This document shows, piece by piece, positions 5,291 to 51,197 of a stretch of DNA of 64,000 nt. The DNA is from Heteronotia binoei (taxonomy: Eukaryota). The notes beneath the pieces are model-generated. The model saw only the letters and a list, made by a program, of their open reading frames with translations, did not search any database and was not told the origin of the DNA. Within the stretch, counting starts at the first letter, position 1. Every line of letters starts with the position of its first letter. The DNA is taken from the NCBI RefSeq assembly GCF_032191835.1, contig NC_083224.1, positions 32,736,001 through 32,800,000 of the forward strand, written 5' to 3'. The position numbers and the translations under genes are program-made.

Positions 5291-7489
5291 GTTCAGAGAT
5301 TTCATTATGATGGTTTCAACTTTGATATAGGAAGTTTTCAAATAAATGAGTGGAGTGGAGGACTTTGAGGATAGCCAGAGACCAAAGTAGAACTTAGCAG
5401 ATAGAACTTCATGTTAGAGTGCTGGAACCCAAGCTTCAATCTTCTCCATCACTTCAAATAACTACTTAGACCCAGTGGAGGTTTCCATGGGCAACATGAT
5501 TTCTGCCTATAGAATATGACATTCCCACCTACCATCCCCTCCCCTCCCCTGAAGCGGTATTTCAAGTGACACAGAGCAGGACAGGGAGGTGAGAAAGTAC
5601 CACTCTATGGGCAGAAATTCATGGAAATGATCCAAGCTAGTGTGCTGACTGGTTCATTCCAAAGAATGAAAGTGCACTTGAAGATGTTGCATGATGGCCC
5701 ACATGTTTGAAACCTAGGATGTCAGCAGCCAGAGCTTGAGTTGCTTAATTTTTCTGCATTTGTCAAACATACAACAGTGAAAGGAGGCATAGAAGTATTG
5801 GCAATTCTACATGGACAGTATTTCGACTGCTAAGGAGTCGCGTGAGAATCCTGCGCATTTTCCATGAGAAAGATAAACACACATTAAATGAATGAAGGTA
5901 AGCCAAAAGCACTAACAGATGGGCAGTTGGGAGGACATGGGAGGTGTCCCAAATCTGGCAGGCTCAGAAAGAAGCATTCTATACAAGCCTTTGCCTGCAA
6001 GCCCTTCCCATCCCATCTGCGGGGCGACTTGGTGCAATCAGATGACTGTTGTGCACCATCCCTGTAGTTTGTTTTGGGTTTCTTTTTTCCATTCATTTAT
6101 TAGTTATGCACATGTGCACTCATGCCCCCATGCACCTATGTGCTTGAAATCAATTTTTTTGATGGCTGGTGGCTTGGCGGGTTCACACCTCGCTTCTGTG
6201 TCCAGATGCTGAAGAGGCGACTGATGTGCAGCTCAGATATTTGCTACCACTTCAAAAGTGGTAGCTTTCTGAGCCACTCTGAAGATGCCAGAGGATGGGG
6301 TGAGCACGGGATGGGGATGGGCTGCAGATGTGCTTGTTTGGACGGGTTTTTCTAGTTGGTTTCTGAGGCGTCTCTGGGTTGCCTCAGACTGCCGACTGCC
6401 TGTTAGTAAGCTTCCCTCATGTTACATTCCTGCATTTATAGCTGAATGTGTTTTTATCCAGGCTTTCTTGGTCTCCAGTTTCATTTGTTAAGTGTGTCCT
6501 CATTCTTTCTTACAAACAGGAATGTCAAAATACATGCTTGATGTACATGCGTTCACTGCAACTTTGTGAACTGTGTTTGTGCAACGGAAGGAGAGCATTG
6601 TTTGCTATTCCTTGAAAGCATGAATTGTTGGAGTTCCATTAATGGGTCTCCTGCTGTGCTTGTTGCTCCTCGAAGCAGCCAGAGCAGAAGGATGTAGTTC
6701 AGAGCTGTAGTTCTGTGGAAGTGGGAGTTGAACTCGTCTTTCCATGACATGTCAAATGTTTTTTTTTTTTTAAAAATAAATAATTTCTCCAGCCAAAACT
6801 TGGCCTCCAGCTGTCTTAGATCTGTTAACTGAAGTACAATACAGATGCCTGTCCTTTTTTCCCTCCTGCCGGCAATTTTTGATTAAGAAGCAGTGAGTAT
6901 GTGAGGGAAGGAGGAGAATGTGTTAATATCTTCCTTTCCCAGTGGTATGGCCCTGATTCAGTTTCTCCTTGGCTACCTTTTACCAGGGGGAACCATGTTA
7001 TGAAGCTCCAGTATCACACGAGTGTCTAGTTACATGAATGAAGTAGGAGTTTTCAGTTGCCCCCCTAGTCAGAATGATGAGGCAGAGACAGGTTGGAGTT
7101 AAGGGCCACTTTATTAACTTTAACACAATAGCAAGGGCTAACTCATCGGTCAAGTCAAGCCAGGGGACAGTCTCTTGTCTACCCCCTTGACCTGGTTATG
7201 GGTGAGCACCCAGCCCCAGAAATGAACCAATCTACTGGCTCATAACCGGCTGGCAGGGCCCAACTGATCCCCCCTTAATGGAGCACCACCCTCCCCCAAA
7301 CCGTACAGCCTGGTCAGTGGATTACTCCCATTGTGAGGGGATCCCTAGTTTACCTGGATTCAGATCCCAAGCAGTGAAACTTAATGGTCAAACCAGATAG
7401 ACCGTTACCATAAGGTGCGGTGCCCCAGATGCTCACCAACCCCCATGCCACCACCAGGCCCAAGCCTCTGTTTAGGCCCTTGTGCCCAT

Positions 7490-8045
7490 CTAACCTGCCA
7501 AAAGCTGACAGAGCCTTTGCCGCATGTCCTCTAAGAAAATTAGATTACCTTGTTCTGACAGATGTACCCCATCCTGCCTATACAAGTCCATTCGCCTGGC
7601 CCTAGACCCTTCTCGAGAGCCTTTTACAAGGCCCTATTAACTTTCTTATGGGTACGTTCCAGCCCAGCAGGATCCCAAGCCGCTCGCCATTCCCGGTGGG
7701 GCAGCATTGCAGACCACACAATGATGACACCAGGCCACCTCTTGCGGATCAGGCAAAGGTCGGCATGTGCCTGTAAGGAGAGAGCCTTGCTGTTCAACAA
7801 GCCCAGGTCATTGCCACCAAGGTGGATCAACAAGATGTGAGACGGAGAACCCTTCCTTCCCTCAAACAAAAGTGGCAGGAGTCCTGGCCATTGCATGCCA
7901 CATTGACCCTGCCACTCGATAACCGCCTTCTTGCTAAGGCCCAGCTGGAACCCCACCAGCATCCGATGGGCTTGATGGGCCACCCAAAAGATTATGCTGT
8001 GGCCGCAGATGAGGATTCTTCTCCTCCCAGCCTGTGCCACAGCAC
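7490..8045 (-). pseudogene. SGNH/GDSL hydrolase ORF of Ngaro copy 1
   Basis: ILICGHS (block I), IHLGGNDLG (block III) and, after a frameshift, DLYRQDGVHLSEQG (block V DxxH) ending at a stop near 7490. Confidence 0.85.
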
Positions 8046-8075
8046 CTGTAAAAGAGAATCATTAAACTTTTCTGA
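8046..8075 (-). promoter_or_regulatory. Putative 3' splice acceptor in front of hydrolase (copy 1)
   Basis: Minus strand tttaatgattctcttttacag|GTGCTGTGGC; identical junction context in copy 2. Confidence 0.6.
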
Positions 8076-8157
8076 ACATGCAAAACACAACTTTATAACT
8101 GACTGGAGCAACTATCGTCTGAAAAGAGGGGGGTGGTGGAGGTGAGCTGACCCCTCA

Positions 8158-9070
8158 TCAGGGAGCTGCCAGAGGTTGGACGTAGCTCTTAAAGGCCCCA
8201 GACCTCCATTGCCCTAAACGGTGGATATCGTTGCTCCGTACCCCAGAGCAGCTGCTGTGAATGCCGCCCCAATCCTGAATGAATGCATGCCAAACTTTAT
8301 GTTACCTAGGCCTATTTTTGTTAGTGCATGGCCCATAATGGTCCAAAACTGAAACTTAGTCAAGGGTGCCCTGTCTGCATGCTGGAACAACGGACCCTCG
8401 CTACTGCCCCGCAATCCCAAATAGTGGGAAAGGGCAGAAGCCGGGCATAGCTCCCTGTTGGAGCAAGCGCCCAGTGTGACAACACTGCCGTGCTGCTTCT
8501 GGTCTGTTTTTGATCGCCAGACATGCAGTAACACCTGTTCATCCTTGAATTGCAAATCGCCTACCAACAGGGCCCAATCGTTCGTATCCTGGTGGGAACG
8601 TAGCACCAGTTCAGACACCCGCAATGCCCCATAAAAGGCTGTCAAGGCCGCTGCATGGAAAAGGGTCTCCTCATAAACTGATCCGCAGACCAAAGACCAC
8701 AAGCCATGAAGGCCCCTCAGGACTGACGGGGAAATGGGCTGCCTGTCATCTAACAGGCCTGCCTCCCGGGACCACCACTCTAACATTTTTTGTATTCGAA
8801 AGTCCTGGGTTTCGTCCCTGAACCCTTGTGTCTTGCTCATGTAGGCCAGGGCAGCTAACTGACCCCTAATGGTTTTTACTGACAGACCACGCACCTTCTG
8901 CCACATGCAAAATTGCATGAGAAGCTCCACTGGTATAGGCCAGCTATCAGCTAAACCCGCCTTCCCTCTAAAAACCGTGAATTGGCTTGTCGCATGGCCA
9001 TACGACCTTTGAGTGCTGGGCGCTATGACAAACTGGATTGCCCGGCTAGCCTCCTCCCTCCAAGTCACCA
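8158..9070 (-). pseudogene. Tyrosine recombinase of Ngaro copy 1
   Basis: GALRVSELV, RSKTDQ, HSFRIGAA; a frameshift near 8230 restores RLGQWRSGAFKSYV with the catalytic Tyr; stop at 8158-8160. Confidence 0.9.
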
Positions 9071-9089
9071 CAGATGCGTGGGGAGGCGT

Positions 9090-9357
9090 ACTGGCAGTGG
9101 GTGGGCCTTTGGGGCGAGTTGACGAAATCACTCGATCTGTTGGTGAGACAGAGCGTCCGCCATGCCATTACAAGCACCTGTAACATGCTTTGCGAGAAAT
9201 AATGCATTTAATTGCAAGCAATGCTCTAACCAAACCCATAACTTCGGGCGATCTAGAGGTCAGTTTGTTAATAACGTGTACAACAGCCATGTTGTCACAC
9301 CAGAAGTGTACCGTCTGATTGCTCATTGCCTGACCCCAAAGAAAAAGAGCCACCATC
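9090..9357 (-). pseudogene. RNase H C-terminal part of Ngaro copy 1
   Basis: VALFLWG...FWCDNMAVVHVIN, then in another frame KHVTGACNGMADALS (DIRS/Ngaro RNase H motifs). Confidence 0.85.
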
Positions 9358-11357
9358 CACCGCTTTCCTCACTGTTTATAATGACTCTTGAAATCTTATT
9401 GATGCAAATACAAGATGATGAAGAAATAGAAGGAACGAGAATTAAAGGATTTGCTTATAAATACAGAGCATTTGCAGACGATATAATGTTTATAAATGAA
9501 AATCCTACACAAGTAACAACTTTGTTGTTGGCTAAAATACAAAATTTTGGAGAATTGGCAGGATTTGATGTGAATAAAGAAAAATCAAAACTTTTATGTA
9601 AAAATATGCAAGTAAATAAACAAAAGGAGCTGCAAAGACTAACAGGATGTGAAGTTATTTCTAAAGTAAACTATTTGGGTGTGGAAATAACAATGAATAT
9701 TGACTTGTTTAAAAATAATTATGAAAAGTTATGGCGTAAAATGGATGAAGATATGATAAAGTGGAACAAGCTTAATTTGTCATTGCTTGGAAGAATAGCT
9801 GCAATTGAGATGAACATTTTGCCAAGAATAATATACTTATTCCAAACTATTCTGATTGTGAAAGACAGCAAACAGTTTAATAAATGGCAAAGGAAGATTT
9901 CAGAATTTGTAAGGGCTGGAAAGAAACCAAGGATCAAAATGAAAGTTTTAATAGATGCTAAAGAAAGAGGAGGATTCCAATTACCAGATTTAAGACTATA
10001 TCATGAAGCAGTTTGCTTAGTGTGGATAAAGGATTGGGTGACGCTATTGAATAAAAAACTTTTAATGTTGAAAGGTTATGGAAATAAATTCGGCTGGCAC
10101 GCTTATATGTACTATGGGAAGAAAAAGATGGATGGTCTTTTCTCTCACCATTACATAAGGAATAATTTGCCTAAGTATCTGGATAAAATATATGAAATAT
10201 GGTGATGAGAGAAAACCACTATGGATAGCGCCAGCAGAAGTAGTAAGAATAACAGCTGTTTCAGGAGAGGAAAAGTGGATGTCATACAATCAACTATTAA
10301 AAATACAAAGCAGTAAAATAGAATTGAAAACTGCTGAGGCATTGAACTATAAACATGACTGGTTTCAAATGCAACAAATAAAGAGCTTTGTGGAAAGTGA
10401 TCTCAAAACTGATGGAATAAGATGAGAACAAACAGAAATGGAAAAAGTTCTGCTTGGAGATAATGAAAAATTAATTTTGAAAATTTATAAGTTACTTTTA
10501 AAATGGTCTACAGAAGATGAAGTAGTGAAATCACAAATGATTAAGTGGGCAATTAATGTAAATAAAGAAATACAGATGGATACATGGGAATATTTGTGGA
10601 AGAATTCTATGAAACTCTCAACATGTCAGAATATCAAAGAGAACTGTTTTAAGATGATGTACAGATGGTATATACTCCTAAAAAGTTGGCAAAGATGAAA
10701 AATAAGATGTCAGATAGATGTTGGAAATGTAAAAAACTTGAAGGTTCTTTCTACCATATGTGGTGGACTTGTGAAAGAGCAAAAAAGTATTGGCAGATGA
10801 TTCAACAAGAGATTTCTAAGATCTTGGGTTATGAATTTAACAAAGTTGCAGAGACTTTTCTGTTGGGATTACAAATGGAAAAATTTCCAAAAGAAGATAG
10901 AATTTTAATCTGGTACTTGCTCTCAGCTGCTAGGACATTGTATGCGCAGTTGTGGAAGCAAGAAAAGATACCAGAGAAATGGGATTGGATTGTAAAAGTT
11001 ATGACATGGAGTGAAATGGACAAGTTAACAAGAACCTTAAGAGACTATGATTTGGAAGTATTTAAGATGGAGTGGAAAAAGTTCAGAAGTTACGTAGAAA
11101 AAGAGTGGAAAATAAAAGGACATTGGACAATTTTTGATAATGATTAAGTATAAGAGGGAGTAAGAGTTTAATTGTGGTTCCTAATTACTAAGGGTACCTT
11201 TAATATTAATATTTTAAATTTAGTACACTGGCGGGGGTCAAGTAACAGGGGGAGGGGTGGGTAAAAAGTAATATATGGGATAGAGGGGAAAAGTAGTTAT
11301 TAATGATGTAAGAAAATTGTCTATACTACCATATGTTATTAATAAATTGTTTGAAAC
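9358..11357 (+). mobile_element. 5'-truncated L1-clade LINE (ORF2 RT C-terminus, CCHC, 3' UTR) inserted antisense in Ngaro copy 1
   Basis: PLSSLFIMTLEIL, YRAFADDIMF, YLGVEI, KMNILPR-like motif, CWKCKKLEGSFYHMWWTC; AT-rich; ORF2 ends at 11147; AATAAA at 11341-11346. Confidence 0.9.
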
Positions 11358-11903
11358 CAGAAGGTCAAAATTCTCAGGGTAGACCGGGAGAAGGCGAAAT
11401 GCCGACTTTATGCTGGATTTCAGCATCTCGGCTCCACTGCCGTACACGCAGACAATGCGCACAGCCCGTTCAAAAGAGGTATATTTTACAGAGGCCAACT
11501 CCTCAGGTATGGCATCATTTACTGATTGCCCCCAAGGGTAGGAACAATGATGAAGCAGGCGGAATTCACCCGCCACCTTCTTGGGCACAACCCCCAAGAG
11601 GGACACCCGAAGGTTGGGGACCGGTGGGTCCTTGAATGGGCCCACCACCCACCCCTCAGCACATTCCTTCCTGATTTTCTCCTTAACAATGTGCTTCAAA
11701 CCTTTCACAGAATGCAAATTAGAACATAGAAATGAACTCTGGGGCCCGATAGGGAATCCTGAACCCGCTGGTAAACCCTTCCAGGAGATGCTGCCCTTCC
11801 ACCTGGTTGGGTTAGTCACGTACAAGTTCCTTAAGAACCAACAGATGTATGGGACTGGGGCCCATTTCCAGTCTGCTGTCCTGGCCCGCCCCCACCTGCT
11901 CAC
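11358..11903 (-). pseudogene. RT N-terminal part of Ngaro copy 1
   Basis: GFPIG...SNLHS...LGVVPKKVAGEFRLLHHCSYP...SVNDAIP...KSAFRLLPVYPENFDLL, cut at the L1 junction. Confidence 0.88.
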
Positions 11904-11949
11904 TTACTGACCCCCTTGTGCTTGGCATTGTTACAAGCCATAAAAGCGT

Positions 11950-13165
11950 GAGGGCCCCCACAGAGTGGATACTAATGCTTGTACTTGCACGTTTTTCAGG
12001 CACACGCTCCCTGGGAGGTGAACTCTCAACAAAGCAGTCATGGGTGACTGACTGCCCCGCAGGAGCATAGGTGCCGGTTGGGTTTGAAGCTTTGTGCACA
12101 ATGTGCCCACTAATCAATCCCCAATGTTTGCTTTGCGGGTGCCATGAGCTGCAGCCATAGCTGCTGATTAATTTGGTTCCAGGGAAGGCTGGGATTGACA
12201 GCTGCCCTCATCCTAAACTCCTCATCATACTGGAGACATGCCCCCTAATAAAATCAGTATACGCCCGGTAAATGATGTCACAATACTGAAACGGGGGGCA
12301 GCCCTCAATGTCTGTGTCTGAGCAATAACTCCAGCATAGATAAGGAATCCCGGTAGCCAGTTAGCCCAGGTCCTATCCAATTTCTGCCTCTTCAGCTTTT
12401 CTTTATTTTTCTCATCTAGCTCATCTTTGGTGCAGAGGAAATCCCCCAGCGCCCCACTGCACTGCCAGCCAAGCTGGAGGTGAAAAGGACGCCTGTTGCC
12501 AGATTCAAGGCCAGCCACCCTGTGTCTGTTGCATTGGCTGCCTGCCGCCACCCCACCTTGACCATACAGGGCCGTCAACATCTGACATGGGAACCAACTA
12601 CCCGATGGGTTCTCGATTGATATGGTGACCAGGTTGGGAAGTACTGAGCCAGTAGACTGGTGGCCCAGCCATGAACCCGACCCCCTGCTAACTGCCACGT
12701 TTGGGGTGGGAGACATTAAAGGTCCCTGGCTGCCCACACCTGCAACTGGTCCCCATGACTCCCAGGGCCATGCCAGCCTCTGTTGTTGCGGGAGCAATCT
12801 ACTGTCACCCTCCAAAGGCACCACCGCTACTGCCTCCAGCTCCTCCATCTGATCTTCCTCCAGTGGTTTAGCTGCATGACTCCGCTGCTGCCCTCTCCAG
12901 CCTCCTGTAAAGCAGAAAGACAGGCCAGCACCTCCTTTTGAAATGATACTGTAGCTGCATGCCCAGGGCCCATTATCCCACTCAACCAACGTTGATTGCC
13001 ACACACCCCTTGCTTCCTCCAGCGCCCCCAGCTGGTCCGAAAGGCCAATCTGATGAGCGCCTCATTTTCCTCTTCAGGCGGGGGCTGTGCAGGGTTGGGT
13101 CTTTTAACAGGTTTCTTAGCCAGCTGCTTTCCCTTGGGTGGGCCCTGACCCTTCTTTGGAGCCAT
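11950..13165 (-). pseudogene. Gag-like ORF of Ngaro copy 1
   Basis: MAPKKGQGPPKGKQ start; DRTWANWLPGFLIYAG; decayed zinc knuckle C*EFTSQGACA*KTCKYKH*YPLCGGPH matching copy 2. Confidence 0.8.
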
Positions 13166-13715
13166 AGCACTACCTGTGCCTTGCTGGATTCCACCTACTA
13201 TCCCAACTGCTAGCTCAGCAGAAGGCTCACTGGAGGGCACCCCCTGGATAAAGAGTGAGCCCCCCACCCTTTCCTTTGGGCTACTAAGCCAAGGCCTGCA
13301 GATGCAAGCAGCATTTTTTTTTTGCTCTTGACTCCCCCACCCAATCTGAGAGAAGCTCCCTGTGGGCGCGAACAGCCGCGACCCTACCATCGCAGGCCCG
13401 ACTATGCTTGAAGGCCCCACTGCCACCGCGGCTTCCCCTCCCCCAAACGCGAAAAACCACCGCTCTGCCCGGCCTGTGGCACTAGCTGCCAGCCTTGCCA
13501 CTGCCGCAACTGCCTCCCTTCATGAACTGCCAAACCGTCTGTCCTCGCATCCACTGCTGCCCACACGTGATGCTCCCCAGCTCCACCAAGCTCTCTGGGG
13601 GCCCCCCACACTTCTTCGGCCTCCCTTGCACCGCTTCCCGACTCGGCCTGCCACGGAGCCGAGCAAAAAGACGTCCTCCGGGAGCCGAAAGCGGCGAAGA
13701 ACTGTGCCACAGGGG

Positions 13716-13785
13716 GTGGGGCTGGCTAATTTATCCTGTGCCCGCCCCCTGTGGGGCTGGCTAATTTAGCCTGTGCCCGCCCCCT
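13716..13785. repeat. 35-bp tandem duplication in the 5' region of Ngaro copy 1
   Basis: gtggggctggctaatttaKcctgtgcccgccccct x2, one mismatch. Confidence 0.9.
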
Positions 13786-13906
13786 GAGGGCCTGGATAAC
13801 CGGAAAGAGTCCACTGCCTCTCCTCCATCCAGGGGAGGCAAAGAACAGCCCCCAGCCTTATCAGCCGATCGGCTGGGTGGGGCCAGATTCCCTACCAGTC
13901 ATAGAA

Positions 13907-29800: not shown

Positions 29801-30854
29801 AGTAGAAAAAAAGGTGCTGGAGTTCATTAGCATAACTATTTGCATATCCACACCCTGACATCACCAGAAGGTGGACTAAATTATATCAGCTCAGCATCTA
29901 CCTTAAAATGCTTCTTGAATGATAATTATCATAATAAAACCCCATCATACATTTAAAATACTTTATCCTATGCTGCCACAGCAGCATGAATATTTCCATC
30001 TGTCTGCTTTGCCTGTTTTGGTTATTTTCCCATTTTTGTGGGGGGAAATATTAGAAAGTTTGTCAAATCTTACTTGGTTCAGCAAAATTCTCACAGCAGA
30101 ACAATGGAGCCCAGAAGCAATTTGTTTTTTTGGTGGGGGGAGGTAAGAAAGAAAGAGCACAATAAAATTTAGAGGTTCCAGAGCTCTGCTCCTGTAAGCT
30201 CCTGCCCAAAATGAGGCCTGGTTGATGGAATGCCATGAAAGCGAGAGTCTTCTTGACTTTATCAGGCAGGCCATTCTATAACATTGGGGGGGGGGGCATA
30301 CCAGAGAATGCAGATGTACACTGTACATGCAGTTGTTGATTTTGCCTACTTAGAATCATAGAGTTGGAAGGGACCCTCCTGGGTCATCTAATCCAACCCC
30401 CTGCACAATGCAGGAAACTCACAAATACCTTGCCCCCCCAGTCGGAATGAAGAGGCTGACATAGTATGTTGGGTATAAAAACCGGGCTGCTTTATTGAAA
30501 CAAACTTATCAAACCTATAACTAGCAGGGACAAGCCCTGGGGTCACCCCCTGACCCCGCCTTGTCCTAGGAGGGTGAGCCACCCTGCCCCCAGCACAAGC
30601 CCCCCGTATTTGGGCTGTTGCTGAGCGGCCAGGCCCAAAGCCATTCTCAACCTGGGCTAGCATCAATCCCCCATGGAAAGATCCGCCCAGGTGAGGCTTT
30701 TCTGTGATCTGAATTCCCCGCACTGAGCCGTACAGCCCATCTGCGGTTCATACAGACCACCGGCACACCTGGTGCTAAGCCATAGGTGCTCCCCTGAAAA
30801 CACTGTGGACAATACATCCTCCAGCACCACCAATGCCAAGCCTCTGCTTAGGCA

Positions 30855-31447
30855 TTAGCGCCCCACCGGACGGCCCAGAGCCAACCGCAACCCCTGCCAA
30901 ATCTCTAAAAAGGCCCGGTTGCCCAACTCTGACAGATGGACCCCATCCGGCTGATACAGGTCCGCGTCCTTGACCCATATGGCCAGATGTGGGAGAAAAA
31001 GCCCTAGGCCATTTTCCATGGCCTTCTGCAAGGCCCTGTTTGCCTTACGCCTAGCACTCTCTATCCCACCAGATGAAAGGGCAAACCTCCAAACCCTGCG
31101 AGGCAAAATTGCCGACCATACCAGGACAACACCTGGCCATCTTTGCTTAATTTCCCGAAGGTCAGCCAGCGCCTGCAGTGAGAGGGCTTTCCCCTGCATA
31201 AATCCTAAGTCATTACCACCCAGGTGAATGACCAGGATGTGAGGAGGAGGTGCTGTCCTCTCTCTAAACAATAATGGCATGATCCCTGGCCAGCGCAGGC
31301 CCAGGAAACCCAGCCACTCCACTATTGCCCACTCGCTGAGGCCCAGTTGAGTGCCCACTGGAGACCGCCTGGCTTGATGGGCCGCCTAGAACACCATACT
31401 GTGCCCACAGATGAGGATACGATGCCTCTCACTACGAGCCACAGCAC
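30855..31447 (-). pseudogene. SGNH/GDSL hydrolase ORF of Ngaro copy 2
   Basis: RILICGHSMVF*AAHQA... (one nonsense codon), IHLGGNDLG, LYQPDGVHLSELGN. Confidence 0.88.
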
Positions 31448-31475
31448 CTGAAAAGACAGAAAATTGTCAACACCA
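31448..31475 (-). promoter_or_regulatory. Putative 3' splice acceptor in front of hydrolase (copy 2)
   Basis: Minus strand ttgacaattttctgtcttttcag|GTGCTGTGGC. Confidence 0.6.
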
Positions 31476-31524
31476 AGGAATAGCCAGTGGGCAATAAAAT
31501 AGTCACACTTCCATACAAACCCTC

Positions 31525-32415
31525 CTAAGTGACCAACAGGCATACGTAGGATTTAAAAGCTGCCGACCACCACCGGCCAATACGCTGTATAGTGGAGGGG
31601 GTGTAACCCATCACGGCTGCTGTGGAAGCGGCCCCAATCTGGAATGAATGCGTCCCGAACTTGACACCCTTTAAACCCAGCTCTGCCAGGGCCCAGCTTG
31701 TCACGGCCCAAAACTGATACTTGGTAAGTGGAGAGCCCTCACAATGCCTAAAAAAGGGGCCCCCGTTCTCACCCCTAAGCCGTGTGTAATGTTCCATGGC
31801 CCTAACCGGGCACAATTCAGGCAAGACACACTGACCAATTGTAATGTTTGACCCCTTCTGGCGTTGATCAGTTTTGGACCGCCGAACTGTCAAGATAATC
31901 TGCCCCTGCCCAATTTTAACATCCTTGGCCTGAAGCGCCCGCCCTGAGGTATCAGTCCTGGACTGCACTACCAACTCACTAATGCGCAGAGCGCCGAAAA
32001 AGGCCATTAAAGAGGCTGCATAAAACAGCACAGCCTCGAAAGTAGAAGAACATATACCCGGCCAAATCCCAAACAGCCCCTTGAGTACTGAAGGGGATAT
32101 GGGTTGCCGGGTATCAACCCACAGCCCGCGCTCCCTGACCCAGCCCTCCAACATCTTCCGAACCCTGAAATCACCCGTATTCTCCAGGAACCACTGTGCT
32201 TTGCTAATAAAGGCCAGCGCCGCCAGTTGACCCCTAATTGTCTTGAGCCCCAAGCCTCTCTCCTTCTGATAAACACAAAACTGCATGATATGCACCGTAT
32301 GAACCGGCCAACTATCATGAAGTCTGGCGGTGCTCCTAAATGCCCAAAATTGGGATCCCACCCTATCGTATGCTCTTCTGGTACTAGGTGCCAATGCTAA
32401 ATGAATGGCCCTACC
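31525..32415 (-). pseudogene. Tyrosine recombinase of Ngaro copy 2
   Basis: Open frame; GALRISELV, RRSKTDQ, HSFQIGAA (catalytic Arg changed to Gln), IQRIGRWWSAAFKSYV. Confidence 0.9.
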
Positions 32416-33250
32416 AGCTCGATGCCTAAGAACGTAAGAACGTAAGCACAGAACTGGGCCCCTCGGTCTTTTCATTCGCCAAAGGTACTCCAAGCTCAAG
32501 GGCTAGCTCCTGAAATAACTGTAACAATCTGGCGCATTGCCCCGAGCCCGCTGGACCCACAAAAAGTAATCGTCCAGGTAATGCGCTGTGTCACTAAGCC
32601 CAGACCTATCCCTTAGCACCTATTCCACAAAAGAACTGAAATGCTCGAATGCGGCACAGGATACCGAACAACCCATAGGTAGGGCATGGTCCATGTAAAA
32701 TTTTCCTTCAAAACTAAATCCCAGAAGCTCGAAATCCTCTGGGTGAACTGGCAAGAGGCGAAATGCTGACTTAATGTCACATTTCGCCATCTCGGCCCCA
32801 ATGCCACATCCCCTAACTACTTTGACCACCTGGTCAAAGGAAGTATACCGTACCGAACATAATTAGTCGGGTATGGCATCGTTCACTGATGCCCCTTTTG
32901 GGTAGGACAGATGGTGTATCAGGCGATATTCCCCTGGCGCCTTCTTGGGCACCACCCCCAAAGGGGATACCCATAATGCAGGTACAGGTGGGACATCAAA
33001 GGGTCCTAAGACCCTACCTTCCTGACAATCTTTGGCTATCTTAGCCCTAACCACGTGCTCAAGACCCACCACAGAACGGAGATTAGAAGACAAACAAGGG
33101 ACCCTAGGACCCCCGTAAGGGATCCGGAACCCAACAGAAAATCCATTCCATAAATACTCGCCATCAGCTTTATGGGGATATTTGCTCAATAAACTAATGA
33201 GCACCCTCAGACGAATGGGGCTGGGCCCCTTTTCCAGGGGGCTGCTGATT
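32416..33250 (-). pseudogene. Reverse transcriptase of Ngaro copy 2 (thumb and RNase H missing)
   Basis: SPLGVVPKK...RLIHHLSYP, KCDIKSAFRLLPVHP, LPMGCS, YLDD at 32569-32580, EKTEGP..LTFLGIEL. Confidence 0.88.
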
Positions 33251-34733
33251 GCCTCCACCGCTGGGGCATTTAACCCCGGCCCTTGGCTTTGACCGACTAC
33301 AAGCGGAGAGGGCGTGAGACCCGCCACAGAGTGGGCACTCATGCTTAAATTTACAGGGTTTCCTTGAGCACACACCCTTCGATGCAAACTCCCAGCACAA
33401 CAGCCAGGGTTGAACCAGCTGGCCCACTGAAACGCGGGCCCCTGTGGCAAGCTGCTGCTTATGAGCTAAATGTCTCCTATCGGATCTGTCCCCTGAATTT
33501 GGCTTTGCCGGGGACATCAACTGCTGCCAAAGCTGCTGGTTAATCTGGTCCCATGGCAGCCCCGGGTTAATGGTGGCCCTCATGCGAAAGGCCTTGTCAT
33601 ATTGCAGCCAAGCTGCACCGACGAAATCCGTGTAAGCCCGGTACACAATATCGCAATACTGAAAAAGCGCAGCCACGCGAGCCGGCTGCACCCTTGCACT
33701 AATGCCTGCGTAGATAAGGAAGCCGGGCAGCCAATTAGCCCAGGTTCTGTCCACTTTCCTACGTTTCAACTTCTCCTTTTCTTTATCGTCAAGTTCCTCT
33801 TTGTACTTTTTCTCTAACTCTCTAAAAAGGAGGCTAAAAAGTCTACATATTCCCCACGTAGGATCCTATCCCGTGTGGTCACCGATAGATGGTCCCCTAA
33901 CGGCAATGCCGTGTCGCCATACAGGAGCATATGAAAAGGGATGTTCGCATAGGGATTTGGTGGGTAAAACCACATACCCCTCTGAAAACTCGGCCATGCC
34001 CCCTGCATCTGCATGTATTGCTGCCCGCCCCAGGGTAACACGTCAGGCGGGGCCTGCGTTGCAGTCACCGCCTGTGGCACAGCCGAGGCGACTGGCTGGC
34101 CAGAGGTCTGTAGACCTGGGCTGCCTACCCTGAACCCTTGGGGGGGCTGTGCCCTGATGGCCCCAAGCCCAAGACGGCCCCACCCCCCACTGATCGGCAG
34201 AAGGTCCACTCTGCCCAAAAACCCATGGCACTCCCGCCGCTGTAGTTGGGGGGGGGATGGTAATTGTGTAGGGCTCCAAGGCCACACCTGCAGCTGCTGA
34301 AAGGGGGGCTTACCAACATTCCCAGAGGGGGGAACACTACTGCAACCACCAGAGGCTGCTGCACGACCTTTCCCGATGCACCGCTAACCGAAGGCTCCTC
34401 TGACGGGCCCTCGCCCGGGTCTTCCTCTTGGTCTGGCTCTTGTTGTCATTCAAGCCCTGGCGCTCCTCCCTGTAAAGCAGACAGACGAGCCAGTACCTCC
34501 TTCTCAAAGGTGAAACGGGCTGAGCGCCCTGTCGCACGGCGACGCCCTTCCCATATGGGAGCACCCGTGGCCGCTCTCTGTTGCTCCAGAGCCTCCAATT
34601 GGCCCATAATAGCTAGTCTCACTTGGGCCTCTTGCCCCGGGTCCTCAAAGGGACCAGGTTGCTGACCCCGCCCCCGGGGGGGTCGGGCAGGTTGCTTGCC
34701 TTGAGATTTGCCCTGCACTTTTTTAGGTGCCAT
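33194..34733 (-). pseudogene. Gag-like ORF of Ngaro copy 2
   Basis: MAPKKVQGKSQGKQ start; DRTWANWLPGFLIYAG; CWEFASKGVCSRKPCKFKHECPLCGGSHALSAC; overlaps RT in another frame. Confidence 0.85.
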
Positions 34734-35199
34734 AATGACGCACCACCTAGCAACACTCAGGCATGCCCACAACCAACACCTTACAAAACAATCCTTCCCG
34801 ACCCTAAAATATGGCTGCCACACCCTCACCACCGACACGTGATGAGTGGAGGGGGGCGGTTTAGGAAGGCTGTGGCAAATAAAGAGCAGCAGCCACAGAA
34901 AAACAAGGGGGGGGGGGTAGCAGGCCAAAGCCAGGCACCCACAGCCCCTAAACACCCAGCTGCAAACAGCACTACCCAGGTGGTGTAGGGAGGGTTGTTG
35001 AGGAGGGCTGGGTGGATGATACTTCCCCTAACACCCTTCCCTTGGCCCAATAAAGTTGTGGGGTAGCCAAACCACTCCCCAGAAAACACCCGGCTGGGTG
35101 GGGAGGGGGGGGGCTAACACCGACTCAAAACGCCCCCACACAAACCCCTTCCCACGGAGGGCTATCAAGCCCCACTTGATCCCCAAAGCAGGAAAACCG

Positions 35200-35400
35200 T
35201 GCTGCCCAACAATAGCCGCCGCTCGCGCCTCCAAGCCACCGCGTCAACGTCCCACGCCGATCTGAGGCCTTCGCCGGCGCTATCCCCCGCTCGCGCGCAG
35301 TTCGCCCGCACATGGCTCTCCCTCAGAGAGCTAGAAACAAACTGCGTACTTCAGGGCGCGGGCGGGGCTTATATAGCCCGACGCCGCACCCGGAAGAAGC
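35200..35400 (-). promoter_or_regulatory. CpG-rich putative internal Pol II promoter of Ngaro copy 2
   Basis: Dense CpG; minus strand gctatataagccccgcccgcg (TATA-like plus GC box) around 35358-35378. Confidence 0.5.
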
Positions 35401-35676
35401 ACCCAGATGAACCGGGGCTGTCAATCATCCGCCTCTCCTTCCGAGCTGGCAAAAACGGCCCCCAGCCTAAACGTCGGTGATGCCGGCTTAGCTGGGAAGG
35501 GGTCGGACCTTCCCCTAAATTCACAGAGGAATATTGCTATCAGATGGCCATCTAGCTTCTGTTTAAAAACCTCCAAGGAAGGAGAGCCTACCACCACCAG
35601 AGGAAGCCTGTTCCTCTGAGGAACTGATCTGTCAGGAAGTTCTTCCTAAAGTTGAGCCGGAAACTTTTTTGATTCA

Positions 35677-43013: not shown

Positions 43014-43289
43014 TTTCCACACATGGACCTCCACTTGGGTTTTCTCTGAGTCTGATTCACATTCATTTACCTTGCAGAAAACACTGGGCAAAACAGCATC
43101 CATATGTCCTGGCACAATTGTGGGGTGAAACTGGGGTGAGCTCAGTGTAATGAGGAAATGGGAGGGGGGAACCCAAGATAAAAACCGGGGTGAAATTGAG
43201 TGTAGTGTGGAATGTCAGTTTGGGGACAGGGTTGAACCAGGATTCAAGTCTAGTGTGCAAAGGGCCTAAGTGATTCATCCCTCTTTCAC

Positions 43290-43688
43290 CCAGGGTCACA
43301 TCACCAAAACCTTTGAATATAAACATCCAAAAGAGCATATTCAGAGCATATTGAGCAGCATTTTGAAATTCTGACTGTTGTGTACTGAATTTAGCATTTT
43401 GCGATAGCTTTGCACTTTTCCGAGCTACCGCGGGAAACCATGAGATACCTTGATGGACCTGTACTGTTTGAAGGAACCAATGAGTGGTCGTGGCAGGAAA
43501 TGCAACTGCAGTGATTTGGTATGGACTTGGGGGTGTTTCTTTGCGTGTTTTATAAGTGGGATCTCGGCCCCGCCATGTTGTCTTTTGTCCGTATGTAGTT
43601 AATAAAGCATGTTCTATGTTGAATTCCGCTGCATCGAATTTGCTATTTAACACTGACACAGGGTGGTGGCTCCAATTAAACACGGCTG
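43290..43688 (-). CDS. Candidate unassigned coding exon (133 codons, phase 1-1)
   Basis: Lies in a 296-codon stop-free frame; acceptor cttcctcctgcag| and donor CTGG|gtgaaa; non-repetitive, CpG-retaining; product not recognised. Confidence 0.3.
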
Positions 43689-44100
43689 CTGCAGGAGGAA
43701 GATTCAACCACACATAGGAAGCCCAAATACAGGGAAGAAGAAGAGTAATCTTTAAAAAATACACCAAGAAAGATGAGAGAGAGAGAGAATAAAACCAACA
43801 CTGTGCTAGCAGCTGCAACTGAATCAATGTTGTTATAACCTGCACAGCTAATGAGACCTCCAGTGGCCACTCAGAAACCCTGGTGGCAAGAACCCCCCAT
43901 GGCCAAACCAGGAAAGCTGTTGATAGGTACCAAGGCATCCAAGGACACCACATTGGGAACCCCGCTATAGTGTTTTACTACGTAGCAGTGCTTTCCTGCA
44001 GAAGTCCCCATGTTGCTGTGGTGGCCAATGCACTGCAATGGCAATGAGTCTTCAAAACAGAGTTGGTAACCCTGGAGTTCTCTTGGAATTATATCTAGCC

Positions 44101-44320
44101 TCCAAAATAGTGAAGAGTCCAGTAACACCTTTGAAACTAGCGGATTTTATTGGAGCATAAGCTTTCGAGAAACACAACTCTCTTCGTCAGATGCATCTGA
44201 TGAAGACAGCTGTGTTTCTCAGAAGCTTATGCTACAATAAAATGTGTTAGTCTCAAAGGTGCTACTGGACTCTACTCTTTTGCAGCAACAGACTAACACG
44301 GCTAACCCCTCTGGATCTAA
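44101..44320. mobile_element. Penelope-like head-to-head inverted terminal repeats
   Basis: Palindrome centred on atgcat (44191-44196); arms ctgaYgaaga...gcttatgctMcaataaaat...aaaggtgYtactggactc. Confidence 0.8.
44155..44194 (-). ncRNA. Intact minimal type I hammerhead ribozyme core (Penelope-associated)
   Basis: Minus strand GCAU-CUGACGA-A-GAGAG-uugugu-UUCUC-GAAA-GC-UU-AUGC; stem I GCAU/AUGC and palindromic AGCU stem III. Confidence 0.7.
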
Positions 44321-44949
44321 CCTCAAGACTGCAGAGATCAGTTTCCCTGGAGAAAATGGCAGCCTTGGAGGGTAGACTCTATGGCATGACAATCTTGCTG
44401 AGCTTCCTGCTCTTTCTGGACTCCACTCTCCCCAGGCTCTGCCCCCAAGTCGCCAGGAATTTCCAAACCCAAACTTGGCACCCCCTACTTCCAGCTGATG
44501 GGTTTCTCCACTTTTTATCTGCCCCAGCCCCCATGATGCCCCCATACTATAGGAGGAAGCTTTTCTCAAGACTTTTAGAATAAAATGGTAATGGACACAC
44601 TGATATGTCATTATATTTGTATGCCAATTGCTGATTTTTTTTAAACAATTACAAAAAGACCACCAGTGGCAGGGCAGGGAAAATGGCTGCTGTGTTTCTG
44701 CGACTGGAAAATCCAGGCCTATCCACCCACATGACAGCTGGCTCAGCTTTACTGTGTTTGTTCCTAAAAGCAGGTTTGCGAAAGATCTCAGAAGAGCTGA
44801 GAAAAAGTCAGAAGCATCATGATGCTGTGGGAAGTGGAGGGAAAACCCACTCTTCAAAAGTATCCAGCCCAGGGCAAACCAGCAGTGTGGATATGGCCAT
44901 AATGACAGTGTATAACAGAGTCAGATTAACCACTTGATCCTTTCAAGTA

Positions 44950-48736: not shown

Positions 48737-51197
48737 CCGCTGAAGCGGTGCCATGGTCGGACCACCTCGCCCTCAGGGCCCGTGTAGATATGCCACCCCA
48801 AACCTGTTTAGGCAACGAGCTTATTATGGCTCGCCCGCGGAGCCAGATGGACCCGGAATGGTTCCAAATGGTGCTGCGGGATCCCTGGCCCTCTGGCGAC
48901 TCTCTCAATGGCCTGGTTGAGACCTGGAATAGCCGGCTCTCTAGGGCCATAGAGGAGATCGCACCTCGACGCCCTCTATGACCTCGGACTAGGCTGGCCT
49001 CGTGGTACACCCCGGAGTTACACCAGCTGAAACAAGGCCTCAGACGGCTAGAGAGGCAATGGCGGTGTACCCGCGACAAAGCGACTAGAACATCTTATAG
49101 GAAGTTTATGAAGTCCTATGAGATGGCAGTCAAGACCGCAAAGAAAACATACTTTGCGGCTAAGATTGCGTCTGCAAATTCACGCCCGGCACAATTGTTT
49201 AGGATAATTCAGAATTTCACTACATTGCCACAGGGCAATCCAAACGTCAAGGAATTGGAGATAGGCTGTGAGGCTTTTGCAAAATTTTTTGCAGACAAGA
49301 TCCAGTCGCTCCGCCGTGACTGCCCTGCCAATTTAGATACAGTAAGTGAACTCGAGGCCCAATGCATGTCTTCTGATTTGACCCTGGACTGCTTCAACCC
49401 ACTCAGCTTGGAGGAAGTCGACAGAATCCTTGGCACTGCACGACCAACAACTTGCGATCTGGACCCATGCCCCTCCTGGCTAATTAAGGCCTGCCAGGAG
49501 GAGCTAAGATGTCCTATAAGGGGCATCATAAATAGATCTCTTTCAGAGGGCTCTTTTCCAACACTCCTGAAAGAGGCAGTGGTCCGCCCTCTCCTGAAAA
49601 AGGCTACATCAGACCCGGCCAAATTGGCTCATTACCGGCCGGTCTCAAACTTGCCCTTTCTGGGCAAAATTATAGAGAGGGCTGTGGCGGTGCAGTTACA
49701 GGATTTTCTGGATGACGCTTCCACCTTAGACCCATGCCAGTCCGGCTTCCGCCCGGGCCATGGGACGGAGACTGTCTTGGTCGCCCTCATGGATGACCTC
49801 CGGCGACATCTGGATCGAGGCGGCTCGGCGGTACTGCTGCTGCTAGACCTATCGGCTGCATTCGATATGGTCGATCATCAGCTGCTGACTCACCATCTTG
49901 CCGACGCAGGAATTTGGGGGCTAGCCTTACAGTGGCTCTCCTCCTTCCTTGAAGGTTGGGGACAAAGGGTGGCAATTGGAGGGGAACTGTCTCGGAGACA
50001 CCTACTTAATTGTGGGGTGCCTCAGGGGGCAGTTCTCTCCCCGATGTTGTTTAACATCTATATGCGCCCCCTTGCCCAGATTGTCCGGGAGTATGGGCTG
50101 GGTTGTCACCAGTACGCTGATGACACCCAGCTCTATCTATTGATGGACGGCCGGACTGGCGATGTCCCTATAAATCTGGACCGGGCGTTACAGGCCGTGG
50201 CTGGCTAGCTCAAGCTGAGTGGACTGAAGCTGAATCCAGCGAAGACTGAGGTCCTTTGCATAGGTCGCGGCAGGCCAGGAGGGGAGATCTCCCTACCAGC
50301 CTTTGACGGTGCGTCATTGATACCAGTGCGCAGGGTCAACAGCTTGGGAGTGCTACTGGAGCTTTCCTTGTCAATGGAAGCCCAGATAGCTGCCACTGCT
50401 AAATCCGCCTTTTTCCACCTTAGGAGGGCGAGGCAGTTGGCTCCCTTCTTGGAGCGTAGCGAACTGGCAACTGTGATCCACGCAACGGTCATTTCGAGGC
50501 TGGACTACTGTAATGCCCTCTACATGGGGCTGCCCTTATACCGAACCTGAAAACTGCAGTTAGTGCAGAACGCGGCAGCCAGGCTGTCAGTGGGACTACC
50601 TTGGTGGGAACATGTGCAGCCTAGGCTGCGGGAGCTGCACTGGCTGCCAGTTGTGTATCAAGTTCATTATAAGGTGCTGGTTATTACCTTTAAAGCCCTA
50701 TATGGCCGAGGACCTGCCTACCTTAGGGACTGCCTCTCCCCATATGTTCCCCAGAGAGCACTGAGATCTAGTTCCCAAAATCTTTTAAAAATCCCTGGAC
50801 CAAGGGAGGCTAGATTGAAAACAACGAGGGAGCAAACCTTCTCAACAATGGCCCCCTGATGGTGGAATCAACTCCCAGAGGAGGTGCGAGCCCTGCGGGA
50901 CCTGAATCAGTTTCGCAGGGCTTGCAAAACCGCCCTCTTTCAGCTCGCTTTTAAGATGGAACCCGGCTAAATTGATTTCTAGCCATCCTATACATGTTTC
51001 TGAATTGTAGCACCTTAATTAATAACTCATAATGGCTAACTGTTTTATCTAATTTTAACTTAATTTATAAATGTAATTCAACTGTATTTTAATCTGTTTT
51101 ATTGTAATGATTGTATTTATTGAAATCATGGTTATACCATGTCCTGTGAGCCGCCCTGAGCCTGCCTTTGGCAGGGGAGGGCGGGATACAAAAATAC

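Follow-up and report, generated by a model that had tools for sequence, protein, structure and literature searches.

Hydrolase-bearing Ngaro-like retrotransposons very probably use a single phase-1 splice donor inside ORF1 for alternative splicing to one of two acceptors, one opening the tyrosine recombinase (YR) and the other the SGNH hydrolase. The window analysed here, a 64-kb (64,000-nucleotide) stretch of Heteronotia binoei DNA, contains both acceptors, the donor, matching phases, and no usable ATG for either enzyme. Protein databases contain three classes of protein that share an N-terminus and part at one point. Since the hydrolase lies start-less behind an acceptor and relatives join the ORF1 start to either hydrolase or recombinase, alternative splicing from a shared first exon is the likely source of both enzymes; that these junctions are made in vivo we infer from sequence. 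In the proposed scheme, unspliced RNA would yield the full ORF1 protein and also serve as the genome. Splicing from the ORF1 donor to an acceptor inside RNase H would yield the ORF1 N-terminus (ORF1-N) plus YR, and splicing to the hydrolase acceptor would yield ORF1-N plus SGNH hydrolase.

The window contains two decayed retrotransposons, both on the minus strand, with the gene order ORF1, reverse transcriptase (RT)/RNase H, YR, and SGNH hydrolase. Their features are as follows.

7057..13860, minus strand: copy 1, approximate extent; non-coding ends align between copies, above all 100 shuffles
7475..8045, minus strand: copy 1 SGNH hydrolase exon, phase 1, without ATG; stop and frameshift near the 3' end
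8046..8070, minus strand: splice acceptor of the copy 1 hydrolase, with branch-like motif, pyrimidine tract, and CAG; fails the strict rule, passes the loose rule
8214..9136, minus strand: tyrosine recombinase exon of copy 1, lacking a Met near the start; P0075 tblastn E 6e-101
9137..9160, minus strand: copy 1 second acceptor (CAG 9139-9137), within the RNase H frame; opens the recombinase frame, phase 1
9147..11240, plus strand: non-LTR fragment inserted in copy 1 in the opposite orientation; RVT_1 E 9e-7
12797..12808, minus strand: two degenerate donor candidates of copy 1, with the intron beginning at 12802 or 12808; each is phase 1 in the local ORF1 frame
12803..13165, minus strand: copy 1 ORF1 N-terminal exon (ATG 13165), frameshifted; P0006 E 7e-7
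30430..35470, minus strand: copy 2, approximate extent; non-coding ends align between copies, above all 100 shuffles
30855..31447, minus strand: copy 2 SGNH hydrolase exon, one internal stop; blocks GHS, G, GGND, and DGVH present, Lipase_GDSL_2 E 5e-9
31448..31475, minus strand: copy 2 hydrolase splice acceptor; passes the strict rule
31525..32427, minus strand: copy 2 recombinase; P0075 residues 165-459, E 2e-111
33194..34313, minus strand: copy 2 ORF1 core, read only when unspliced, with a C-terminal zinc-finger-like motif; P0077 tblastn E 1e-90
33297..33320, minus strand: candidate for a third acceptor in copy 2, leading into the RT frame in phase 1; the homologous copy 1 position is not AG
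34308..34314, minus strand: copy 2 donor G/GTAAGC, first intron base 34313; reads Gly-Lys in ORF1
34314..34733, minus strand: N-terminal exon of copy 2 ORF1, encoding a basic tail, two predicted helices, and a linker, with one stop and one frameshift; P0006 1-134, E 3e-14

The two copies are old relatives: identity is 289 of 446 aligned bases in the hydrolase and 509 of 882 in YR, only 58-65% over these genes. Both are dead and need not be spliced today. Most of the RT/RNase H region of copy 1 is missing at the 9147..11240 insertion, which we take to be L1-like. Copy 2 probably lost its recombinase start, together with the acceptor, in a deletion joining RT to YR near 32415-32420. The closest matches of the window hydrolase are lizard proteins (67% to Eublepharis). 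Elsewhere, the window contains another RT fragment (RVT_1 E 6e-29), as well as two long ORFs that have no Pfam match (48982-50208 plus; 43063-44920 minus).

In gene content the elements are Ngaro-like. A YR ORF follows ORF1 and RT/RNase H: P0075, which has Pfam phage integrase domains, aligns to both copies (E <1e-100), and the window YR ORFs themselves gave E 0.043 or no match against Pfam. RT and RNase H motifs are, by our reading, visible in the element sequence; a Pfam search with the broken RT/RNase H fragments returned no match. An SGNH hydrolase ORF, a feature of a vertebrate subgroup, follows YR. No methyltransferase lies between RNase H and YR in copy 1, where the end of RNase H overlaps the start of YR directly, and the region is deleted in copy 2. 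Split direct repeats (A1...B1-A2-B2) were not found, no direct or inverted repeat within either copy scoring above shuffles. As these repeats were not found in copies this old, the elements are filed as Ngaro-like only, not as proven members. The Xenopus elements DIRS-53_XT and DIRS-54_XT are likewise hydrolase-bearing and Ngaro-like, their hydrolase having no proven function; in the available sections of their description, they share the order ORF1, RT/RNase H, YR, SGNH hydrolase and the lack of a methyltransferase, and DIRS-54_XT, like the window copies, has no split direct repeats (PMC9210276). In contrast to the present scheme, those sections treat the genes as four separate overlapping ORFs and do not contain 'splic' or 'intron' (PMC9210276).

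Several non-coding segments of the minus strand were also of note. The 3' ends (30430-30590 and 7057-7220), with AATAAA and a terminal G run, are conserved between copies above all shuffles; as they are conserved and yet no split repeats were found, the elements may have a different terminal structure. A conserved 5' block (35360-35470 and 13750-13860), ending in a TATA-like box in copy 2, is a probable promoter. Directly 3' of the copy 2 hydrolase stop is a hairpin (30810-30870; z -3.9, 0 of 200 shuffles); at the corresponding copy 1 site (7440-7500) the same stem-loop core is visible and the score is not significant (z -0.25).

The preliminary description had proposed that the hydrolase frame has no start codon and is fronted by a splice acceptor in both copies. 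Indeed, both acceptors are present on the minus strand, with the AG at 8047-8046 in copy 1 (exon from 8045) and at 31449-31448 in copy 2 (exon from 31447). The exons share phase 1, as had been stated, and in both the split Gly codon lies 13 codons before the Cys of CGHS. The claimed absence of an ATG before the catalytic GHS also held: there is no Met in either copy between GHS and the in-frame stops, two of which lie at the branch-like motif in copy 1 and one in copy 2. Read-through from YR into the hydrolase was rejected for the window because of these stops. The YR-hydrolase spacers, described as unrelated, are 103 and 77 nt long, and their alignment is no better than that of shuffled sequence, 762 of 1000 shuffles reaching its score. 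The acceptor had further been called conserved; its kind and position agree between copies, but its letters do not (last 25 nt, 219 of 1000 shuffles).

Using a strict acceptor rule (≥11 of 15 pyrimidines, YAG, no AG upstream), 139 of the 4520 minus-strand AGs in the window passed. The copy 2 hydrolase acceptor is one of the 10 sites that pass out of the 363 AGs of copy 2, and of these it is the richest in T. The copy 1 acceptor fails, with 10 of 15 pyrimidines and an AG approximately 20 nt upstream, and this copy has a stronger, out-of-frame acceptor-like site at 8118. When the rule was relaxed post hoc so as to let both sites through, it matched 75 positions in the 64 kb. The acceptor string by itself is thus weak evidence, and the case rests on position, phase, and relatives.

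The donor, which was missing from the preliminary description, lies inside ORF1, about 140 codons in (34313 in copy 2; 12802 or 12808 in copy 1). In both copies, donor and acceptor are compatible as a GT-AG pair, both being phase 1 in the local ORF1 frame; if counting starts at each copy's own ATG, the donors fall in phase 0, a consequence of the frameshift that each copy carries ahead of its donor. Splicing of the hydrolase to an upstream exon, said to come from gag or the 5' leader, was supported in its gag/ORF1 form by fused ORF1-N/hydrolase models in lizard relatives. A leader exon is disfavoured, as it would bring in no start codon and the fused models start from the ATG of ORF1. Accordingly, a leader donor in copy 2 (G/GTGAG at 34829) was considered but dropped, as it brings no ATG and is used by no model. 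The expectation of an env-like product was not borne out, as approximately 120-205 ORF1 residues remain on the enzyme, making it an ORF1-tagged enzyme.

Using the copy 2 hydrolase as the query, 44 homologues were returned, 10 of which carry a full ORF1 N-terminus of 140-155 residues, 9 of these 10 having gone into building the profile of this N-terminal module (N-module). Independently, P0006 matches both window ORF1 starts (E 3e-14 at 34733; E 7e-7 at 13165). RefSeq contains ORF1-N/hydrolase fusions from five lizard families (Eublepharis, Anolis, Rhineura, Elgaria, and Hemicordylus); a Gekko model annotated outside RefSeq is a further example, and Pogona also has one. A count by eye put a Gly at the position of the window's split codon, 13 residues ahead of block I, in 13 of the best 14 Eublepharis models. 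Unspliced ORF1 models share their N-terminus with the fused models and diverge at the same point. Thus, the unspliced P0077 and the fused P0012 agree up to EGDG, from which P0077 continues into the ORF1 core (window match E 1e-90). At the branch point, four of four unspliced representatives read Gly-Lys, Gly-Lys, Gly-Asn, and Gly-Asn, as G/GTAA requires, and the copy 2 donor reads Gly-Lys, as does P0077. Long N-terminal extensions, which may or may not be ORF1, also occur in frog models.

The same ORF1 donor also appears to serve the recombinase, a point absent from the preliminary description, through an acceptor inside RNase H (copy 1 exon starts at 9136). This second site is deleted in copy 2. 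The N-module was matched by 105 of 294 stored proteins, a set biased by the choice of look-ups and including the 12 proteins from which the profile was built; by motif, the matches comprised 69 hydrolase, 13 YR, 10 ORF1 core, 13 other, and 0 RT proteins. At the Hemicordylus locus LOC128347973, isoform X1 carries YR and X2 the hydrolase, the two being identical for 123 residues. Likewise, LOC128341831, LOC128343527, and LOC128349017 of Hemicordylus each give a YR/hydrolase pair. Where the isoform pairs first differ (Gly/Asp, Gly/Val), the two codons have their first base in common, as expected of a phase-1 junction. All six YR fusions in which the junction could be recognised, drawn from four lizard families, have 26 residues between that junction and the first conserved Trp, and the copy 1 CAG at 9139-9137 gives the same distance; P0075 aligns to copy 1 from residue 135 at 9149. 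Finally, a single Ala at the YR junction separates two isoforms of Eublepharis LOC129337769, the difference expected of a 3-nt tandem acceptor. Such a pair is hard to obtain without transcript data.

A joined form was also found in a raw assembly contig of 1,677 nt. The Logan protein P0104 encoded there has the N-module (E 1e-11), the YR leader, and the hydrolase in one 394-aa frame, a span for which copy 2 needs 3.9 kb. The contig is too short for an unspliced element, so a joined molecule exists, be it RNA or DNA; it could come from DNA. The Anolis models P0213 and P0216 have the same three-part form. In these three-exon forms (P0213, P0216, P0223, and P0104), an internal donor in the YR leader or body precedes the hydrolase acceptor, and its position varies between families.

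The fused models might be annotation artefacts, in which predictors joined the open frames of a repeat via chance GT-AG pairs and the elements do not splice. Acceptor-like strings are common, as the strict rule revealed, and a single junction can be propagated to many loci through multi-mapping or protein alignment. Moreover, a few models are plainly odd joins: P0019 attaches the hydrolase to the YR end and P0029 attaches it to the ORF1 core. We nevertheless consider this very unlikely, as one branch point recurs across families whose fused N-termini are only 28-58% alike, single loci give isoform pairs, one pair differing by 3 nt, the length of the YR leader is constant at 26 residues, and a raw contig contains the joined form.

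Slightly less probable again is translation of the hydrolase alone from unspliced RNA: ribosomes would re-initiate beyond the recombinase stop, using either a near-cognate GTG where the exon begins or a lineage-specific ATG. An in-frame GTG with purines at -3 and +4 does occur in both copies, and the Xenopus hydrolase ORFs are reported to overlap their neighbours (PMC9210276). Upstream in-frame starts are found in L001, a metagenome contig, and in P0036 and P0037, ORFs of raw contigs in which the start is called upstream of the hydrolase exon; the upstream residues of the latter two look like a translated pyrimidine tract. Re-initiation explains neither the fused models nor the recombinase isoforms, and use of the Met that is frequent after GHS would drop the nucleophile. 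The smallest probability falls to the fused proteins arising mainly from internally deleted DNA copies, through retrotransposed spliced RNA or deletions, and not from regulated alternative splicing. The P0104 molecule is compatible with such an origin and copy 2 demonstrates that internal deletions occur. However, loci that give both YR and hydrolase isoforms need both exons in place, and precise retro-copies would themselves imply splicing.

Under alternative splicing from the shared ORF1 donor, the hydrolase would be a tagged enzyme. SGNH blocks I, II, III, and V are present as motifs in copy 2 and near-invariant in 52 aligned proteins, and GHS, GxND, and DGxH are kept in 58 of 68 fused-type proteins. 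The P0012 model has pLDDT >84 over residues 141-330, and its top Foldseek folds are SGNH esterases (E 3e-8), predicting that the hydrolase takes the flavodoxin-like fold of an SGNH esterase. The best PDB sequence match of the hydrolase profile was the ZfL2-1 ORF1p esterase (4C1B, E 2e-10), which was absent among the Foldseek matches listed. A relative was encoded in 0 of 20 candidate stretches of viral contigs and in 1 of 442 metagenome contigs, the ambiguous L001. This contig carries a distant AT-rich element (1840-2400), YR then SGNH, with a phase-1 TAG plus an in-frame ATG, adjoining an unrelated retroelement fragment. Large proteins with this SGNH type at the C-terminus, including a fish protein with cold-shock domains, or in tandem copies (P0163, P0157, P0171, P0200, P0203; P0079, P0080, P0090-P0092, P0106) are possible domestications of a start-less, acceptor-fronted exon.

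The shared piece consists of a basic tail, an acidic patch, two predicted helices (residues 32-52 and 74-95 in P0012) that each bear one R-h-x-x-h-E motif, and a disordered linker. Two R/K-h-x-x-h-E motifs, Lys being allowed for Arg, occur in 18 of 20 relatives examined and one in the other 2. A trimer prediction for the N-terminal 96 residues, run without an alignment, scored 0.13, and an Atlas search with the N-module gave no usable match. The piece may self-associate and thereby load both enzymes onto an ORF1 particle, on which the hydrolase might act on lipids or membranes, as proposed for the ZfL2-1 esterase; we advance this role with less assurance than the splicing scheme.

[quoted passage not shown] According to the parts of the study available, ZfL2-1 ORF1p has, like the fused proteins, an N-terminal self-association helix region, a linker, and a C-terminal SGNH domain with catalytic Ser/Gly/Asn/Asp-His (PMC3905857). 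In ZfL2-1 this is one unspliced LINE ORF, whereas the window architecture would be built by splicing and shared with the recombinase; the likeness of the N-termini is one of layout. The available text on LINE-1 ORF1p likewise describes an N-terminus that carries positive charge and, after it, a helix region containing two RhxxhE motifs, considered trimer motifs (PMC5940361). The window piece differs in having no RRM or CTD and much shorter helices; the likeness is one of motifs.

The RT may be made in a comparable way. Copy 2 has a candidate third acceptor that passes the strict rule (exon from 33296) and is in phase 1 with the RT frame; copy 1 has no AG there. No protein model supports this acceptor, none of the 105 proteins with the N-module combining it with RT. 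RefSeq is known to leave out models resembling transposon proteins, so this absence is weak evidence. In the ORF1 zinc finger (33342 region of copy 2; P0077, P0215, P0217, P0218), a His is followed by Glu, Val, or Ala, such that an ATG can fall in the RT frame; this ATG, present in copy 2 and lost in copy 1, is a possible RT start. As a speculative extension that we think somewhat more apt to fail than to hold, alternative splicing could replace Gag-Pol frameshifting in Ngaro: every enzyme, including RT via the 33296 candidate, would bear the ORF1 N-tag, the RhxxhE helices of which would co-assemble RT, recombinase, and lipid hydrolase in one particle, a scheme ancestral to the group.

Splicing in retroelements is already known. 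Retroviruses make spliced subgenomic RNAs (env, foamy pol), and retroviral env keeps little or no Gag. Plant Ty1/Copia elements also produce spliced subgenomic RNAs, the splicing yielding Gag alone in the account available (PMC5580714). In each case, as proposed here, the host spliceosome makes different proteins from one retroelement transcript; the window elements differ in that two separate enzymes would each receive a 120-205 residue piece of ORF1. No description of splicing inside Ngaro elements was found in the available text of the literature searched (PMC9210276, PMC7192593, PMC6681497, PMC3783388, PMC3266345, PMC8547959, PMC4157794, PMC9341512, PMC4495291), which excluded Goodwin and Poulter 2004 and Poulter and Butler 2015; nor was a shared ORF1 donor serving two enzymes in Ngaro-like elements found described.

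In the literature searched, the expression of the overlapping, start-less ORFs of YR retrotransposons is unexplained, and one donor with two acceptors would give exact junctions. The scheme would also correct the protein boundaries of the recombinase and hydrolase for biochemistry. That a YR element reaches the helix-plus-esterase layout of LINE ORF1p would point to a shared lipid role in two unrelated retrotransposition pathways. Finally, if the scheme is true, many 'uncharacterized' lizard genes in RefSeq are spliced transposon transcripts.
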